This document shows positions 830 through 46,340 of a DNA stretch of 52,981 nucleotides, piece by piece (the first letter of the stretch is position 1; each line of letters opens with the position of its first letter). This stretch comes from a virus (taxonomy: Duplodnaviria; Caudoviricetes). The stretch is taken from positions 1 through 52,981 of IMG/VR virus record IMGVR_UViG_3300018080_000230. One strand, written 5' to 3'. The notes beneath the pieces are model-generated. The model saw only the letters and a list, made by a program, of their open reading frames with translations, was not told the origin of the DNA and did no database searches. Position numbers and translations under genes: made by a program.

Positions 830-1086
830 CCTTTATTAAGGTTATAGGTTTATTTTAGAAACCTCTTTTTCAAAATCGCCCTCCAATCCTTTTTCACAAT
901 CATGCATTTCTTGTCCGTTTGAATTTCAATAATGATACCGTGACAGTGATTTGACATACTTCCAAACGATAGACTCTCACGATGCTTTTTTAAATTCGCT
1001 TTCTCGATGCGCTTGAGCGCACTGTCAAATTGACCGTAACTTATTATCTCGTTTTCCATGACCACCCCTTTATTAAGGTTATAGGT
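830..1086 (-). repeat. exact 20-bp direct repeat ACCTATAACCTTAATAAAGG (830-849 and 1067-1086), each copy running into an RBS
   Basis: Plus strand cctttattaaggttataggt occurs at both positions, directly upstream of consecutive genes. Confidence 0.9.
850..1059 (-). CDS. hypothetical protein
   Basis: Track ORF 850..1065; the ATG at 1059 (MENEIISY) is better spaced from the G-rich RBS. Confidence 0.7.
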   Translation of the reverse strand: MENEIISYGQFDSALKRIEKANLKKHRESLSFGSMSNHCHGIIIEIQTDKKCMIVKKDWRAILKKRFLK

Positions 1087-1089
1087 ATT

Positions 1090-1495
1090 TCGTTTAAAGA
1101 CTCTTGTTCAACCTGGGCTTGTCAATCCCAAGGATACCTATTGGGAAGGAAATCAAAAACGCTACCACATTCTTGATCCCCTTCCCGGTATCGGAACTTT
1201 CCCTCATCCATTCCCTGCTAAGACTTAGGCTTCTACCCCATCATCGTCTTGGCCTTTCGGCTCTTACAGCTTTCACTCCGGCCCTATACAGTAGTATAGG
1301 CCAGGGCTGGAATCCGTACTGATTCCCAGGCGGTTGGTTTCCCGCCCGGCAACCGAAGGTGGTTGCTCAACCTCACGACTCTGTTCTTATTCGGCCCCTT
1401 GGGGGGGCCCGCCTCTAACGGCTTCGTCGTGACTCATCTTTGAAAGAACGCCCGAAGGTCAAACTTGATTGAAACAGCTTCAATCATCGACCTCC
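1090..1495 (-). ncRNA. large structured non-coding RNA or 5' leader (~400 nt)
   Basis: No credible long ORF; about ten hairpins. The 20-bp helix at 1143-1186 has five G-U pairs that form only on the minus strand. GAAA tetraloop; boxA-like GTTCTTTCAAA at ~1439-1449. Confidence 0.7.
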
Positions 1496-1600
1496 TATAT
1501 ATAATATACTATATGTGTCAACCCGGCCTGGTGAGGAAAAATTGGTGAGGAAAATTGAACAATTTTAAACACTTGACACGATTCATCTAAGTTATTATAT
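1496..1600. promoter_or_regulatory. divergent promoter region with tandem repeat TGGTGAGGAAAA(A)T x2 (1529-1555)
   Basis: Minus strand: TTGACA (1516-1521) followed by TATTATA. Plus strand: TTGACA (1574-1579) followed by TATTATA (1593-1599). Both spacings are shorter than the canonical 17 bp. Confidence 0.55.
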
Positions 1601-1609
1601 ACAGAAAAT

Positions 1610-2251
1610 ATGGAGCTTCTCAAAACCTGCTCAAGATGCAAGCTTACCAGACCGGTTTCTGAATTTACCAAGAACCGTTCTAAAAAGGATGGTCTTTCTT
1701 GTGAGTGCCGGTCATGTAAAGCAGAGTCTCAGGCAAGATATCTAAACTCTGATAAGGGCCGTAAAGCCGTCCAGAGGGCCGTTAAGAAGTACCAGGCGAC
1801 CGGTGGGGGCAAAGAGGCTTTTAATAAGGCTACGGCCAAATACTGTGCGTCTGAGCATGGAAAACGGAAGCGATCTGAATACTATTCCTTACCAGAAGTC
1901 AAAGACATGAGAAGGGACAAAGGACGGGATTATTATAAAAAACGCAAAAAAGAGCATCCCGAAAAATATCGTGCTTATTGTAAATTGAAATATGCTCTTG
2001 AAAGCGGTAAAATCAAAAAGCCGGACAAGTGCGAGGATTGTCCGGCTACTAAGAACATCCAGGCCCACCATGAAGATTACAGTAAGCCCTACAATGTAAA
2101 CTGGTTGTGTCCGAAATGCCACCGCAGACGAGACCGGGAGCGTAGGGTCAGGCTGGCTCTTTCTTCGGGCTCGGCTTCCCATCCAGGTCAGGAAGACCGC
2201 CCGGGAAAGCCCTCTCTATCAGAACCAGGCGATCCTGCAAACCTTTCGTAA
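1610..2251 (+). CDS. Zn-finger/HNH endonuclease-like protein (putative homing endonuclease)
   Basis: N-terminal CSRC...CRSC; C-terminal CEDC...AHHEDYSKPYNVNWLCPKCH HNH-like motif; the only credible plus-strand gene. Confidence 0.8.
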   Translation: MELLKTCSRCKLTRPVSEFTKNRSKKDGLSCECRSCKAESQARYLNSDKGRKAVQRAVKKYQATGGGKEAFNKATAKYCASEHGKRKRSEYYSLPEVKDMRRDKGRDYYKKRKKEHPEKYRAYCKLKYALESGKIKKPDKCEDCPATKNIQAHHEDYSKPYNVNWLCPKCHRRRDRERRVRLALSSGSASHPGQEDRPGKPSLSEPGDPANLS

Positions 2252-4754: not shown

Positions 4755-7238
4755 TTAGCCTGGTACAAAAAAATCATTCAGATATTCGAGAACCTGTTTA
4801 TAAATAAAATTCTCTATAATAATATCCGTGGTATCTTTTACCATGAATTTAATTCTGAATTTATGCCATGCCTCAAGCGTTCCATCCTCGGCCCTCAAAC
4901 TGGAATTGTTTTTGAACTCTCTCCAATCCGCACTTGAAAGATCGCCCTGGCTGTAAGCCTGTTTAACCTCAATCCTAAAATAATTTCCTATTTTGTTACG
5001 CATCCAGTGAACAACATCGAAAATATAATTTTTATCCGTGACAGTAAGCTGAACATCTTCACCGGTTATGGTAATTTGCTGGTTCTCATATCCGGTCTTT
5101 AACCTAAAATAAGTCGTCATGTCTTCTATGCAGCCAGCCGGATCGACCGTAAAATTTGTGAAAGTCAAACCGTTTCCGATCTTGGTTATACCGTATGGAG
5201 AAACATTATATTTCCTGAACCCATCCAGGAAAGTAAGCGTGTGAGACGGAATATAATCTTTCAATATTTCCGTAAGCTCATGGCGTTTTGTTATGTAGGT
5301 GGCCAGGACATAGGACGGCGTAGTATTTAAATAAACAGTGCCAAACACACGGCTATTATTATGCTGCTGAATAAAATATTTTTCTACACCAGACTCAATA
5401 TTAATGGCCTTTGCTATTGCTAAAACTTCTGGATCGGCATCTCCATTATAGGCATTTGTTTGATCCGTCAATGAACTGAAAACGTATAAAATCTGAGACG
5501 TAGGATTATACCACAAGTATACTGTTCCCTCATCAGAATTTTCATCGGTTATCCCATTGAGCGTAATATAAATTATCAGGTCTGATATTCCCCCGACCGG
5601 ATCATTCACTTTCTCATCTTCATCATAAACCATGAGATGTCTTATCCAGGGACTAAGAAGTATGGCCGGTGTTCCATTCTTTATTATATCCAGTGTACCA
5701 CCAGGCGATCCCGCACTAAAATTATCGGCATCTATATAAGAACTGGCTTCTCCGATGGCCAGGTATAACCCGCAGTATTTACCGGTAATAACATCGGTAA
5801 AATCAATCGCATTAATAACAAGCTGGCCGTCCACATAGCCCTTAAGCTCCACACCACCGCCTATTTCAATGGCCTCAAACCTGATATTCCTGGTTTCGTT
5901 GCGGAAAGAATAACTGACCTCGGCCAATATAAACGTATTTGGAGTTATCCTTTTCATTATCCTGAAAACATCAAGGTCTCCGATATAAAAAAGAAAATAC
6001 CTGTTGACATTTGCCATCGTGCCTGTTGCAAGCTGCCTTAAGCTTAGTTGTAGGTATCCTGGGTGAGCGTGATCCGAAAAGGTAAAATCCGCATTGACAG
6101 ATTGATCCAGGGATGAAAGCTGGTTTTTATAAGATGCAAAGCCCCTGGGATCGCTGCATCCGTTTACGCTGGTTTTGTTGGTTAATATTAAAAGCCCCTC
6201 ATCCACAGTGTCGTGTATCCAATCCGATCCCAGGCCCACCCCTGCATCCGCAACACAGTTTGTATCCGACCGGTTAAAGTCATCCGAAAATTCAACCTCA
6301 CTGATTTGACTCAAAGCTCTTTGATATTCGTCCGGGATCGAACCAAGACCTGATTCATAGTCATCTAATTGAACATCGTTTGCGCTATTGGTATGATTAT
6401 ATATTTCAAAACCAGCGTACTCACCGGTCAAGTGTTTGTCTGCCGTAGAATCATCACCGGATATGAGAAGAACATCATCTACATACCCAAGAAGTCTAAC
6501 AGTATTTCCAATATTCATAGCCACAAGCTTAAACACGTGGTCGCCACCACCTATACCCGCACTGAGAAGCTGCTTTACCACATATCCGGTATCATTCACA
6601 TATCTTCTAAGATAGAGAACGTCCGCAGCATTGAAATATTCAAGTCGATAATAATTATCTGGATCGGTATCGGAATCCCCTCTTATCAAAAGCTTTGCAG
6701 AATATCCGTTAGTACCGGTATCCAGCGTAAATTTTGCCTGGACATAATGGGATGGATACGCAGTAAGAGGATTTTTATTCACCGCAGCACCATATTGAAC
6801 AGTCAGGCTATTTTCCCTTACCTTATTGCTTTCAATCTCAAGATTTCCGCCATAAACTGACCAATCTGTTCCAAGCGCACCATCGGCACGATCAAAATTA
6901 TCTGTAACTTCGACCGTTTTCCCGCTCAGTACCTTTGCAAACAAACCGCCGATTGCGTTAATCACCTTTGATTGAATTTTATAAAGATTCCCACACTCCT
7001 CCTCAAGAATCGGAATCGCCCCCTTAATAGTGTGCATACCTACAGAATTAAATCCCCGGATTCTCAAAATTTGATCTACATGGTGATGTCTTTCAAGATC
7101 AAGGTCTTTTGCTTTGTTTGTAAGGTAGGTGTCTTCGGACGTTCCAAGATGAAGCATTCTTTTTAAAGTCTTATACAAATCGTCAATGTAATTGATTGCA
7201 TAAGAAATAGGTACAATAAACCAGTACAGTTTTGTCAT
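4755..7238 (-). CDS. baseplate wedge protein (P2 gpI-like) with two inserted lectin/ConA-like domains
   Basis: N-terminal gpI-like segment and later ELTEILKDYIPSH motif; two ~190-aa internal repeats starting TDNFDRAD and SDDFNRSD. Confidence 0.6.
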   Translation of the reverse strand: MTKLYWFIVPISYAINYIDDLYKTLKRMLHLGTSEDTYLTNKAKDLDLERHHHVDQILRIRGFNSVGMHTIKGAIPILEEECGNLYKIQSKVINAIGGLFAKVLSGKTVEVTDNFDRADGALGTDWSVYGGNLEIESNKVRENSLTVQYGAAVNKNPLTAYPSHYVQAKFTLDTGTNGYSAKLLIRGDSDTDPDNYYRLEYFNAADVLYLRRYVNDTGYVVKQLLSAGIGGGDHVFKLVAMNIGNTVRLLGYVDDVLLISGDDSTADKHLTGEYAGFEIYNHTNSANDVQLDDYESGLGSIPDEYQRALSQISEVEFSDDFNRSDTNCVADAGVGLGSDWIHDTVDEGLLILTNKTSVNGCSDPRGFASYKNQLSSLDQSVNADFTFSDHAHPGYLQLSLRQLATGTMANVNRYFLFYIGDLDVFRIMKRITPNTFILAEVSYSFRNETRNIRFEAIEIGGGVELKGYVDGQLVINAIDFTDVITGKYCGLYLAIGEASSYIDADNFSAGSPGGTLDIIKNGTPAILLSPWIRHLMVYDEDEKVNDPVGGISDLIIYITLNGITDENSDEGTVYLWYNPTSQILYVFSSLTDQTNAYNGDADPEVLAIAKAINIESGVEKYFIQQHNNSRVFGTVYLNTTPSYVLATYITKRHELTEILKDYIPSHTLTFLDGFRKYNVSPYGITKIGNGLTFTNFTVDPAGCIEDMTTYFRLKTGYENQQITITGEDVQLTVTDKNYIFDVVHWMRNKIGNYFRIEVKQAYSQGDLSSADWREFKNNSSLRAEDGTLEAWHKFRIKFMVKDTTDIIIENFIYKQVLEYLNDFFVPG

Positions 7239-26941: not shown

Positions 26942-27487
26942 TTAACCGGCTAATTCAGCTTTCCTTTCCTGGATAGCTTGTAACACCGTTTTTCTTGCCT
27001 TGTTTCCCTTGGCTTCTTCCTGTAGCTGGTAAAAATCCAGCATCTCAGGATTTTCCTCACCACTGATGGTATCAATAGCATCGTCGGCCTTGTAGTCTGA
27101 TATGTTTTCAGCCCCCTGGCTTTCGCCCGGAAACCCTTCATCTTTGCCGTCGTCGCCACCTTCTCCATCATCCTGGCCGTCGTCCACGTCACTCAGGCCA
27201 TCGTCTTCATCCAGACCGGGGGGCAGGGGAGGTAATATCGGATCTTTTGCCTGGCCGATAGCTGTGGGGCTGTCCACCATCGGCCTGTCTTTGCAGGGCT
27301 CGAACTGCTTGCCATCCTGGAAGGAAAGAGCCCATGCGATCTGCTGCGGAGTTAAGGGATCGGAAACTCCATCAACAAACCGGATTTTCTGGCCCATATA
27401 GGCCGGGAGAAGCTTTTCGCCTTTGCGAAAAGACTTGTCAACCTTATCGGTCATCTTAACCCGGTCGAAGTCAAAATTGCTTTTCAT
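26942..27487 (-). CDS. post-capsid hypothetical protein with acidic linker
   Basis: C-terminal EEAKGNKARKTVLQAI helical motif often seen after capsid genes. Confidence 0.75.
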   Translation of the reverse strand: MKSNFDFDRVKMTDKVDKSFRKGEKLLPAYMGQKIRFVDGVSDPLTPQQIAWALSFQDGKQFEPCKDRPMVDSPTAIGQAKDPILPPLPPGLDEDDGLSDVDDGQDDGEGGDDGKDEGFPGESQGAENISDYKADDAIDTISGEENPEMLDFYQLQEEAKGNKARKTVLQAIQERKAELAG

Positions 27488-30848: not shown

Positions 30849-30849
30849 A

Positions 30850-31000
30850 ATAAAAAAGCCAACCTCTATAACGTAAGGGGAATCCCTTGGTTATGTGAGG
30901 TTGGCTTTACCCTTAGTGGAGGCTTTCGCCGTAAACCTCGCCGGTTTCCCGGCTTTATACTGGACAGGGGAATCATGGGCTAAACCATGATCCCCCGTTT
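30850..31000 (-). promoter_or_regulatory. structured leader/attenuator upstream of the prohead protease
   Basis: Terminator-like stem 30855-30908 plus a T tract, abutting the ATG; two GAAA tetraloop hairpins; three AAAGCC copies; alternative pairing segment at 30931-30939. Confidence 0.7.
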
Positions 31001-31046
31001 ACGAATATTCTATTTATTTATTAAATAACTAATTTTTTCACAAAAA

Positions 31047-31271
31047 TCAAATTTTTTTAATCAAAATCAGCCCAAACCCGGAATCCTGGGGATTCGTAAT
31101 TGCACCAAGATGGTTCTCGGTTTTGCAATATTTACAGACCGCCATTACCTGATTATCCCGGATTCTGAGCATTCGGGATTTTATGAGTGGATCGCCGTTG
31201 TCTTTTGCCGTCGCTGTTAAGGATTTTTTGCATCCTTTACACCGGAGCTTTCTGACATCTGTTTTAATCAC
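31047..31271 (-). CDS. Zn-ribbon protein, Mu Com-like
   Basis: 74 aa, LRCKGCKKSL...AVCKYCKTEN. Confidence 0.7.
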   Translation of the reverse strand: MIKTDVRKLRCKGCKKSLTATAKDNGDPLIKSRMLRIRDNQVMAVCKYCKTENHLGAITNPQDSGFGLILIKKI

Positions 31272-44345: not shown

Positions 44346-46340
44346 TTATGCGCCGAAATCGAATCCGTGAGCGTCCAGGTCTGTATCGGTAATCATCTTG
44401 ACCACCATAGCGGTCGCATCGGCCACGTCCTTTGATCCCCCTGGTGGATGGTCAACTTTATTGTGGTTTATGTCCAATAGCTGCCTTAATTCGGTTTCCA
44501 GTTTTGGATAATCCATGCATCGAAAAAGACCGCTATAAACTACCCGCCGTAAATGGACATAGAGTTGATACTGAACTTTGTTGCTGAAAAATTTCACATC
44601 GGCATCCACGCCTTCCGATTCCAACTGCTGCTTTGCCAATTCACTTTGCCAGTGGTCATACTTAATTTTTCTCATGTTTGGGAAAACCATGTTTAAGGTA
44701 CTGACCACGTTTTGAACATTGACAAAATCCACCGGTATCTTCATGCCGGATTTGTCTTTGATAGGCAGAAATTCAACAATCAGATCAATGACCGGCATGG
44801 ACAAGACTTTGAACCTGGCTGCTGCCTCGGCCAGCGTTTTATTCTGAATATCTATGCGCTCACAATACCCGCACACAAGCGCATAGGTATCCCCGCTCAA
44901 TCCTGGATCACACGCAACAAACCGGATTCTATTATCACCGATCAACTTCTCATGCGTTCCCCGGCCACGGCCAACAAATTCGCCCTTTGCATTATACGAT
45001 CCTTCGGTAATGGTACTGCGTAACTTCATGGCCTTTAATTCTTCGAGACGTTTCATTTGATCGGGAATACACATTATCCTGAAATGCTCATTGAGATCAT
45101 CCACGGTTTTTATCTTAATGCTTTCATCCAAAGGATTGACTTTAATTAAACGGTCTGAAATCATTTCTGTAAAACTGATGGCCGTATATTTCCTTACCGC
45201 AACCACCTTGTTATCTTGCTTGATAACCCTTTCCGTAATTCCCCGTTTATACTCAGCGAAAGGTTTAAGCTCTTTGTCCATGATTTCTTTTATGCGCTCT
45301 GGATGCGCTGCAAAGAAACCGGTCTCAGGGGATTTCACATTGCAGTTATACGCAACGTCCGCAAACTCTGGATCGTCATCGAATATTTGCTGCAAATCTT
45401 CCTGGGTCAGATCGTCTCGTACCTCGACCGTCCGGGCCAGGTCTGTATAAACATTGGGGTTATTGATATTAGTTTTGTACCGCTCCCACCCGTAGTCAAT
45501 GGTATCGTTATCCGGGTATGTTATCAGCATCCCGCTTCCGTATTTTTTGAAAGTCGCCTTGCAGTTTGCGATCACGGTCTTAAGCTGCGCTTTCGCTTTT
45601 TCATACCTGGGCTTTGTGTTCGCCCTGGAAATCTCATCACCTACCCAAAAGTACACATTGAATCCCTGGAAAGCATCGGCTTCTGTATTGAATGAGCATA
45701 ACCGGATATTACCTGGGATATCCATTTCCTTGGTTTTAATATCTTTGCCATCCCGGATATCCATACCTAATCTTGATTGAAACCAGTTAAGACCGGTATC
45801 CGGGTCTATACAATGCTTCAAAGTATTACAAGCATTTTTAAAAAACACCTGCCGGGCCTGGCGTTCATTCACCACGGACACATTGATAAGGTCAATGGTT
45901 CTATCCGGGGTCAGTCCGAAATATCCATGAGGATCGATGAGGCATTTAAGCTGGTATGTTTTATAAACGTAAATCCCCTCACTTAAATAATTCTTTCCCG
46001 ATCTCATGCCCCATATCAGATCGGCTTCTTGCTTTGGTGGAATAAGGGAAAACGGGTCTTCACCGCAGATGGCCAGCCCTGCTTTTCTTTGACGATCAGA
46101 TAATTTTTTGTTCAAAAACTTTCTGAAAAAATATAGAACGTCAACAGGCTCGTACCTCCAAATATCATCAAAGGTTTTTTCTTCTTCCATATATGCCTGG
46201 TCAACAACATTTATATTCCGTCCGCTCGAAGCTTGGGGATGCGCTATGCTGCCGAAGTGAGTAGGGATTACCGGTTTAATTAAAACAGATTCGATCAAAG
46301 AGTCTTCGGAAATTCCACCGGAATTTTTCAATCTTGACAT
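44346..46340 (-). CDS. terL: terminase large subunit
   Basis: Walker A GMRSGKN, Walker B WVGDE, nuclease DPGLSGD and KVDHPPGGSKDVADA. Confidence 0.95.
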   Translation of the reverse strand: MSRLKNSGGISEDSLIESVLIKPVIPTHFGSIAHPQASSGRNINVVDQAYMEEEKTFDDIWRYEPVDVLYFFRKFLNKKLSDRQRKAGLAICGEDPFSLIPPKQEADLIWGMRSGKNYLSEGIYVYKTYQLKCLIDPHGYFGLTPDRTIDLINVSVVNERQARQVFFKNACNTLKHCIDPDTGLNWFQSRLGMDIRDGKDIKTKEMDIPGNIRLCSFNTEADAFQGFNVYFWVGDEISRANTKPRYEKAKAQLKTVIANCKATFKKYGSGMLITYPDNDTIDYGWERYKTNINNPNVYTDLARTVEVRDDLTQEDLQQIFDDDPEFADVAYNCNVKSPETGFFAAHPERIKEIMDKELKPFAEYKRGITERVIKQDNKVVAVRKYTAISFTEMISDRLIKVNPLDESIKIKTVDDLNEHFRIMCIPDQMKRLEELKAMKLRSTITEGSYNAKGEFVGRGRGTHEKLIGDNRIRFVACDPGLSGDTYALVCGYCERIDIQNKTLAEAAARFKVLSMPVIDLIVEFLPIKDKSGMKIPVDFVNVQNVVSTLNMVFPNMRKIKYDHWQSELAKQQLESEGVDADVKFFSNKVQYQLYVHLRRVVYSGLFRCMDYPKLETELRQLLDINHNKVDHPPGGSKDVADATAMVVKMITDTDLDAHGFDFGA

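Follow-up and report, generated by a model that had tools for sequence, protein, structure and literature searches.

A conserved, uncatalogued structured RNA of about 400 nucleotides upstream of small genes in an uncultured marine-sediment phage

An uncultured marine-sediment phage of a little-known lineage carries a real, conserved and uncatalogued structured RNA of about 400 nt, of which two members are known. The stretch 1495-1076 (minus strand) is read here as a genuine conserved non-coding RNA of ~385-420 nt that probably forms the untranslated head of a small-gene transcript and acts in cis as a leader in the style of ribosomal RNA (rrn) operons; the probability of this reading is put at somewhat under one half (about 0.45). 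Large structured RNAs without an assigned role are few in number, and new examples have tended to bring new RNA biology to light. The present candidate is clean, with ~400 nt, 17 helices, 39 helix positions changed in a second phage and no pair broken. It is placed behind a conserved control region and ahead of small genes of the kind that phages use for cell takeover, and its modest size makes it amenable to chemical probing, cryo-EM and reporter assays.

Genomic setting and search for relatives

The window, i.e., the whole stretch of DNA that was analysed, corresponds to an IMG/VR virus record 52,981 bases long, with an estimated completeness of 33%. The phage is contractile-tailed, with PHROG matches to a major head protein (phrog_752, E 3e-89), portal, tail sheath and baseplate. 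Its capsid protein finds its best match among 784 matching phage records in the capsids of Bacillus SPO1-like phages (Herelleviridae), at ~31% identity; capsid relatives at 88, 79, 69 and 68% identity are known as proteins. Seven public runs from five studies contain the window stretch; these are sediment and seawater metagenomes, and five of the seven are flagged as possible DNA sources.

The long open reading frames of the window all lie on the minus strand, with the exception of an HNH endonuclease gene (phrog_2340, E 9.4e-28). The minus-strand order is: structural genes to 2148, the HNH gene in antisense, an AT-rich conserved block, the RNA, and then small genes (69 aa, 72 aa, 100 aa and one open-ended) with strong Shine-Dalgarno (SD) sequences. 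The small proteins downstream of the RNA have no Pfam family and no functional PHROG match, and ARAGORN reports no tRNA or tmRNA gene in the window. The features discussed below are collected in Table 1.

Table 1. Features of the RNA and its surroundings, in window coordinates (L003 is the second contig that carries the RNA)
Feature	Position	Strand	Description
HNH endonuclease gene	1610-2251	plus	70% identical in L003
Conserved upstream block	1496..1560	minus	55/65 columns identical to L003 (0.85)
Candidate RNA	1495 to ~1076	minus	between conserved upstream block and first small gene
5' hairpin	1454..1495	minus	GGAGG, then helices 1491-1458; SD-like purine run at very 5' end
boxA-like run GUUCUUUCAAA	1439..1449	minus	in linker, 5 nt after extended 5' hairpin
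Three-way junction	1373..1432	minus	UCACGAC/GUCGUGA, hairpins GCC/GGC and GGCCCC/GGGGCC, 13-nt joining strand GAAUAAGAACAGA
Hairpin GCAACC/GGUUGC	1349..1366	minus	helix 6: 6 pairs, 2 double and 1 single change
41-nt invariant block	1306..1346	minus	GGCGG/CCGCC with loop GAAACCAA; GGAAUC/GAUUCC with loop AGUACG
Hairpin GGCCUAUAC/GUAUAGGGCC	1275..1307	minus	loop UACU; helix 9: 12 pairs, 1 double and 1 single change
Branched element	1215..1269	minus	closed by CUGU/GCAG; helices 10-13: 15 pairs, 1 double change
Hairpin GGAAU/GUUCC	1193..1214	minus	invariant 12-nt loop GGAUGAGGGAAA; helix 14 invariant
Long helix	1133..1192	minus	6 bp GAUACC/GGUAUC, 4-nt bulge AAUA, 20 bp, invariant loop UGGUAG
Hairpin CUUGGG/CCCAGG	1112..1132	minus	helix 17: 8 pairs, 1 double and 2 single changes
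3' tail	1060..1111	minus	runs into translation start of first gene; SD, then ATG at 1059
First small gene	850..1059	minus	69 aa, ATG at 1059; 72-aa, 100-aa and open-ended genes downstream

The RNA is in no Rfam 15 family. At gathering scores, the 4227 models of Rfam 15 (including RNase P, tmRNA, SRP, 6S, group I and II introns, riboswitches, GOLLD, ROOL, OLE, HEARO, raiA and EAR) give no match in the whole window, and at E ≤ 10 with permissive filters the stretch 900-1700 returns five matches, all far below gathering; the best of these is a miRNA model placed on the long hairpin (23.2 bits versus 100 for gathering). L003 returns five chance-level matches only. The RNA had been noted at the outset as belonging to no recognised family, and the Rfam 15 scan of the window and L003, with no match at gathering scores, agrees.

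Particular classes, several of them suggested by single motifs, were considered and rejected. An GAGGGAAAGUUCC run and a GUGAAAG...GUAAGAGC run recall conserved regions of RNase P; their order is wrong, and no covariance-model match to RNase P appears at E ≤ 10. No model supports a tmRNA, SRP RNA, group II intron, T-box, or cobalamin or ZTP riboswitch, and a C/D-box or K-turn RNA is represented by a 15.5-bit chance match only. A retron and a guide RNA for the HNH protein were considered and dropped. A group I intron has no Rfam match at E ≤ 10; a promoter-like block and the antisense HNH gene lie upstream of the RNA, and the downstream gene is equipped with an SD and ATG of its own.

Searches for further members cover: (i) 50,697 phage records, in which blastn finds nothing at E ≤ 0.01 and, when the cut-off is relaxed to E ≤ 10, nothing beyond a 26-nt chance match to six Bacillus phage records, (ii) IMG/VR, and (iii) GTDB genome contigs, in which the capsid alignment and a loop pattern find nothing. 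In IMG/VR, the 69-aa protein downstream of the RNA has no relatives, three exact or gapped RNA motifs return 0 matches each, and the major capsid protein alone finds none. A capsid alignment finds one IMG/VR locus at 33% identity that is without the RNA, and an HNH alignment finds two weak partial loci. Three distant IMG/VR records searched whole with the RNA give no match (0/3), and the 10 matches to a loop-anchored pattern are all due to chance, as they lack complementary stems and any similarity beyond the pattern. The lncRNA regions of phage K have no similarity to the RNA by nhmmer at E ≤ 100. Topic searches of the literature find no paper on this RNA.

A second member is found through the neighbouring gene. 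The tail-fibre protein that adjoins the RNA has one relative, 71% identical, which is encoded on a 20.6-kb contig; a metagenome scan with the two aligned tail fibres leads to one contig of a related phage, L003, of 6,385 bases. L003 has the gene order of the window: fibre, a 91-aa gene, HNH on the opposite strand, the conserved block and the RNA, followed by a small gene of which the translation start is present. The family size is two sequences, the window and L003, across the phage records, IMG/VR, GTDB contigs and JGI metagenomes.

Fold, covariation and parts of the RNA

The folded stretch of 406 nt (minus strand) has a minimum free energy (MFE) of -166.1 kcal/mol versus -128.5 +/- 5.7 for 100 dinucleotide-preserving shuffles (z -6.63), none of which folds as well. 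The L003 RNA has a fold z of -4.97, again with 0/100 shuffles as good, and the plus strand of the RNA region has a z of -3.58. The GC content is 0.55 over 1201-1500 versus 0.36-0.43 in the flanks. The earlier note had described a highly structured RNA of ~400 nt on the basis of its helices, a description that the shuffled control upholds. Every helix it listed is present in its place on the minus strand and appears in the computed folds, including the 20-bp helix extended by GAUACC/GGUAUC (1192-1133), for which a per-pair table gives the five G-U pairs that had been counted. The arrangement drawn around UCACGAC/GUCGUGA (1432-1373) stands in part: the helix is present, but it encloses two small hairpins only and not the rest of the list.

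The RNA region holds no conserved open reading frame. Its frames reach 72 aa at most, and the 72-aa frame on the plus strand has no counterpart of at least 40 aa in L003. A mini-ORF begins inside the 5' hairpin, 2-3 nt from the SD-like run, and is of 17 codons in the window and 40 in L003; the two share the first seven codons only, which correspond to the conserved hairpin top. A protein-coding gene or leader peptide is dropped, as the frames are short and unconserved between the two sequences.

The window and L003 RNAs are ~81% identical overall, with 77 substitutions in L003. The covariation model counts local helices only (110 pairs in 17 helices) and is derived from both sequences. All 220 cells (110 pairs in each of the two RNAs) form standard pairs; 12 pairs differ at both positions and 15 at a single position, and all 39 of the substitutions in paired columns preserve pairing. 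None of 500 shuffles reaches any of five covariation measures, and when the partners are displaced by 1-3 columns, 1-2 double changes remain and pairing falls to 32-51%. Because the 110-pair structure came from both sequences, the fold of the window alone was also set against the L003 substitutions: it has 11 double compensatory changes versus 2.1 expected (0/5000 random placements) and 15 broken pairs versus 26.9 expected (P 0.0018), the broken pairs being mostly in weak outer closing helices. G-U pairs account for 12 of the 110 in the window and 13 in L003; on the other strand they are A-C mismatches, and thus they fix the strand. The double changes are found in the base of the 5' hairpin, GGCCCC/GGGGCC, GCAACC/GGUUGC, the GGCCUAUAC hairpin, CUGU/GCAG, the 20-bp helix (four) and CUUGGG/CCCAGG, while the five helices that never vary are neither supported nor contradicted in this comparison of two sequences. 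Four runs searched at a likeness of at least 80% yield contigs that are all identical, with 0 other letters, and thus provide no covariation data. Selection at the RNA level, argued earlier from the strand-specific G-U pairs, gains from the one homolog, in which 39/39 helix substitutions keep pairing; the check for covariation finds the 12 double and 15 single changes compatible and 0 pairs broken, again in two sequences.

The rate of change points the same way. In the three flanking genes, 35/57, 20/27 and 123/255 of the four-fold sites are identical, or 178/339 in total (0.53), versus 300/362 (0.83) for the RNA core and 0.85 for the upstream block. Unpaired core columns are also slow to change, with 18 substitutions in 128 versus ~47% change at four-fold sites. 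Three blocks are invariant: 41 nt that form two hairpins, 30 nt around the three-way junction and 24 nt that include the loop GGAUGAGGGAAA. The linker after the 5' hairpin is the least conserved part (13/21 identical). This pattern indicates that the RNA is under purifying selection.

The helices are considered here from the 5' end. The 5' hairpin at 1495-1454, which had been picked out as the start of the RNA, is covariation-supported: helices 1-2 have 13 pairs with two double and two single compatible changes and none broken. The three-way junction (helices 3-5) has 14 pairs, with one double and two single changes, and its joining strand is invariant. The loop of the GCAACC/GGUUGC hairpin differs in length between the window and L003. 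The next block has no change in 41 columns, and its helices 7-8 never vary, which suggests constraint at the level of the sequence itself. Within the branched element, the tetraloop of a GNRA hairpin (1261-1252; GCC-GAAA-GGC) is GAAA in the window and GAGA in L003, and AAGAC/GUCUU (1250-1220) surrounds a purine-rich loop with GAUGAUGG ... CCUAAG. Helix 14 (GGAAU/GUUCC) is invariant, and thus its pairing is unsupported.

The long helix (helices 15-16) keeps 26/26 pairs in both sequences, with four double and seven single changes. Having at least 20 bp (about two turns) of near-perfect double-stranded RNA, it is of RNase III-substrate size and is a candidate processing site for a double-strand-specific, RNase III-type enzyme. 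Beyond the last hairpin, the 3' tail is nearly invariant in L003, and conservation is unbroken into the SD of the first gene. A 19-nt start motif in the tail, CCUAUAACCUUAAUAAAGG (1085-1067), is exactly repeated before the second gene (848-830), with 0 such repeats expected by chance. Several complementarities would allow pseudoknots or kissing loops; all are invariant and thus have no covariation support. Two RNAalifold pairings are dropped from the counted structure: the long-range AGGUUG/UAACCU pair, which never varies, and GGAG/UUCU, which depends on gap placement.

Start region, leader mechanism and rival readings

The conserved block upstream of the RNA includes two invariant direct repeats of TCCTCACCA (1551-1543 and 1537-1529) that overlap the -35 region, a TTGACA (1521-1516) and an AT-rich run that ends in TATATA directly before GGAGG. 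The block is presumed to be a promoter/operator region that is common to the divergent HNH gene. The distance of 14 nt between TTGACA and TATATA departs from canonical spacing; TATATT at 1508-1503 would put the start at ~1496-1495 but is without a -35. A promoter directly before the RNA, as the earlier note had it, stays a presumption: a consensus scan calls no sigma-70-type site there; the nearest site on the minus strand is at 1623-1594. No further copies of the promoter block occur within the window. As the promoter is neither canonical nor called, the 'early' timing of the transcript is an assumption. No terminator-like site is found in 1040-1500, and no strong terminator that needs read-through is seen in the 1.1 kb of the operon within the window.

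The boxB/boxA-like start proposed for the RNA holds in its layout and less well in its letters. A hairpin is directly upstream of the boxA-like run near the presumed 5' end of the RNA, and this order mirrors the rrn leaders of B. subtilis, in which boxA immediately follows a small 5' hairpin and has the consensus AUGAUCUUUGAAA (PMC13753749). The runs of the window and L003 are both 8/9 to UCUUUGAAA, the core of that consensus. Compared to the gammaproteobacterial consensus GYTCTTTAANA (PMC5725501), which may not be that of the host, the run is 10/11 in the window and 9/11 in L003 (GUUCCUUGAAA), and it resides in the linker that is 13/21 identical between the two; the window contains 17 matches of such quality versus 8.8 expected. 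Nus-dependent antitermination is plausible, with the odds leaning against it, because of the 9/11 match in L003, the position in the least conserved segment and the 17 matches of such quality in the window.

The absence of a terminator-like site and the unbroken conservation into the 19-nt start motif make the RNA most simply the untranslated head of the operon transcript. As a cis-acting leader, it would work as follows. Transcription would begin at or just before GGAGG, and the 5'-terminal hairpin, with its SD-like purine run, would protect the 5' end. The single-stranded boxA-like run may recruit host NusB-S10, as happens in the leaders of rRNA operons, such that RNA polymerase would cross 340 nt of untranslated folding RNA and the genes without premature termination. 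The 15 further helices, including the two sequence-invariant hairpins, would fold compactly as a domain to which a host or phage factor binds. The 26-bp helix would be a double-strand-specific cleavage site, at which a hairpin-capped 5' RNA is parted from an mRNA with a strong, repeated translation start region. Of these steps, Nus loading, cleavage and factor binding are inferred, as are transcription itself and the positions of both RNA ends. None of the seven runs that contain the window stretch is on record as RNA, which is a point against the leader reading.

With 17 helices the RNA is far larger than known antiterminator RNAs, a size that suits a free-standing functional RNA at least as well. 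This would be a discrete, stable, trans-acting non-coding RNA (a scaffold, decoy, ribozyme or self-assembling 'ornate' RNA) that is co-transcribed with the small genes and then freed when the transcript is cut at or beyond the long helix, a possible reading at well below even odds. An RNA of this type would be among the first products of its transcription unit. Cleavage would leave the 5' RNA hairpin-capped at both ends; for this reason a leader that acts in cis only is favoured just slightly over a trans-acting RNA that is set free. The bracketing of the RNA by the 5' hairpin and the 26-bp 3' helix is a layout that would protect both ends. The size and complexity of the RNA, its invariant loops and 41-nt block, and the constraint on unpaired core columns all favour a discrete RNA; the RNA and start region are conserved, while in L003 the gene that follows, of which 14 codons are visible, seems unrelated to the first small gene of the window. 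A precedent is provided by the abundant long non-coding RNAs of phage K, one of which is made from its own early promoter (PMC9241854). The loop AGUACG holds a self-complementary GUAC, and UACU is complementary to the loops AGUA and GGUA, such that loop-loop contacts are possible; however, these complementarities are invariant, and helices of such length are expected by chance. A discrete RNA is further disfavoured by the lack of a terminator-like site at the 3' end, by an antisense search of the remaining window that yields no target (best match 13 nt, E 0.27) and by the absence of similarity to the phage K lncRNA regions or to the GOLLD, ROOL or OLE models. A bolder proposal, and a doubtful one, is that the RNA is the founding member of a new large phage RNA class: a self-contained ribozyme, RNP scaffold or self-assembling RNA of 300-400 nt, made as the first product of its transcription unit under rRNA-style antitermination, with invariant hairpins and loops (GAAACCAA, AGUACG, UACU, UGGUAG and GGAUGAGGGAAA) that would bind a host machine or each other. 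If this were true, the phage would exploit the rRNA-production pathway of the cell for a functional RNA of its own.

Control of first-gene translation by a riboswitch-like leader is improbable. In such a leader, AUAGGUAU would pair with either GAUACC or AUACCUAU in the start region. AUAGGUAU is the 3' strand plus the bulge of the long-helix base. The alternative helix of 8 bp (alignment columns 359-366/412-419) is present in both sequences and appears in the MFE fold of L003, while the MFE fold of the window has GAUACC/GGUAUC; RNAalifold, in addition, pairs AGGUUG with UAACCU just before the SD. However, the letters involved are all invariant, and thus do not covary, and in 425 nt chance alone would yield complementarities of 8 bp. 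The RNA matches none of the known riboswitch classes and lacks a terminator, the second gene has the same start-region motif without such an RNA, and 340 nt is far above known aptamer sizes. An element that works at the DNA level, whether a replication origin with a structured primer transcript or the target region of an HNH homing endonuclease, would account for a promoter-like block followed by a non-coding stretch beside a conserved HNH gene; it is rendered very unlikely by the pair-preserving substitutions and the 12-13 strand-specific G-U pairs, which point to a fold of the minus-strand RNA, and the RNA has no tandem or iteron-like repeats. That the structure arose by chance in a functionless GC-rich spacer is scarcely credible: only two sequences are compared, and they are fairly close over the RNA, but both fold far better than their shuffles (z -6.63 and -4.97), the 0/5000 and 0/500 controls stand against it, and identity is 0.83 versus 0.53 at neutral sites.

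Comparison with known systems

Leaders of rRNA operons consist of a 5' hairpin or boxB, boxA and a long untranslated structured RNA, and are associated with a NusB-S10/NusA/NusG antitermination complex. The phage RNA is similar in that a hairpin is followed by a U-rich boxA-like run and then by several hundred nt of untranslated folded RNA, as in the rrn leaders described in PMC13753749; its long helix could be a processing stem. By contrast, the phage RNA is not rRNA and has no Rfam match, protein genes follow it, and its boxA match is imperfect and poorly conserved. If the rrn-like start functions in the manner of rRNA operons, this would be another case in which a phage borrows the transcription mode of host rRNA for a long untranslated RNA.

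HK022 put and EAR are cis-acting folded RNAs that are found directly after the promoter at the head of phage or bacterial operons, and are of ~70-120 nt with two or few stem-loops. The phage RNA, as a leader, would share with them the position of a cis-acting folded RNA at the operon head; it differs in having 17 helices and no Rfam match to EAR.

In the early-mRNA leaders of phages T7 and SP82, as in this RNA, the first gene is preceded by a long untranslated region in which a long double-stranded hairpin stands next to the gene, and the 5' end has an SD-like purine run. These leaders are not known to contain a conserved multi-helix domain of ~15 further helices, and the present RNA differs in its lack of sequence similarity to any of the 50,697 phage records. 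For the SPO1-like phage SP82, RNase III sites in early mRNA are on record together with a purine-rich stabiliser at its 5' end (both cited in PMC4838370 and PMC7509114).

Compared to GOLLD, ROOL and the lnc001 and lnc002 of phage K, the RNA is smaller (~400 nt), has no adjoining tRNA genes, no terminator of its own and no Rfam-model match, and is not similar to the phage K regions. What it has in common with these RNAs is that it is a large, intricately folded phage RNA with no assigned function. Phage K (Herelleviridae) produces abundant lncRNAs of unknown function, one with its own early promoter (PMC9241854), and GOLLD, ROOL and OLE form RNA-only homo-oligomers (PMC12286853).

Translation starts and genes behind the RNA

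The minus-strand row of small genes headed by the RNA includes two sets of repeated start contexts. The 19-nt motif CCTATAACCTTAATAAAGG occurs as exact copies at 1067-1085 and 830-848, before the first and second small genes, where the chance expectation for an exact repeat of this length is 0. Another start context is repeated at 152-180 and 513-541, ahead of two further genes. Both are cassette-like, strong translation start regions.

The RNA and the translation start region that follows it are nearly identical between the window and L003, a metagenome contig of a related phage. By contrast, the gene behind the RNA in L003 is visible for 14 codons (6344-6385, MYRSISQLKKERAE), and these bear no apparent relation to the start of the window's first gene (1059-1018, MENEIISYGQ...); as L003 stops at 6385, the comparison of downstream genes rests on these 14 codons. 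Different-looking gene starts behind a near-identical RNA indicate that, as judged from these codons, the RNA is apparently not linked to a single specific gene.

The divergent HNH gene and the intervening repeat

The HNH endonuclease gene, divergent from the RNA, is the sole plus-strand gene in the window, and the tail of its ORF overlaps an 86-aa gene on the opposite strand. On its 5' side, TTGACA is followed by a 17-nt spacer and TATATA, which ends 8 nt from the ATG. The L003 counterpart has TTGACT, 17 nt and TATATA, with 6 nt to the ATG; this layout is kept despite a diverged spacer. No Shine-Dalgarno sequence was found ahead of the window ATG by sequence reading of 1561-1612. These features suggest an HNH mRNA that is leaderless or near-leaderless.

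The direct repeat TGGTGAGGAAAA is unchanged in L003 and is a possible operator or alternative-sigma element. The exact 9-mer core of this repeat has one additional copy within the window, at 27054.

Coordinates of features in the window and L003
Feature	Position	Strand	Remarks
Direct repeat TGGTGAGGAAAA	1529-1554		copies 14 nt apart; between divergent HNH gene and the RNA
Motifs ahead of HNH ATG	window 1561-1612; L003 5795-5850	plus in window	letters read directly
Folded non-coding stretch	30849-31046	minus	flanked by 74-aa ORF and 318-aa head-module gene
664-aa ORF	44346-46340	minus	directly upstream of portal gene

Other regions of the record

A second non-coding stretch with a strong fold is preceded by an AT-rich run and includes a hairpin of 12 bp and two hairpins with GAAA caps; a GC-rich hairpin comes last, after which UUUUUUAUU lies immediately 5' of the ATG. 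The z-score is -8.3 for this 198-nt gap (mononucleotide shuffles) and -6.09 for 30849-31270 (422 nt folded, minus strand). The stretch has no Rfam match; it may represent a gene for a small RNA, or else a terminator/leader cluster.

The 664-aa ORF occupies the site expected for a large terminase subunit, but no PHROG family matched it at E<=0.001.

Assemblies branch at the record end (1-82), where the open-ended ORF 1-156 encodes a peptide with a weak match to phrog_6186 (E 0.0015). In public metagenome runs X1 and X6, several short contigs align with 29-82 alone, at reduced identity, before passing into unlike sequence; one contig of run X4 extends 16.2 kb past position 1. The assembly break is probably caused by a motif common to co-occurring phages.
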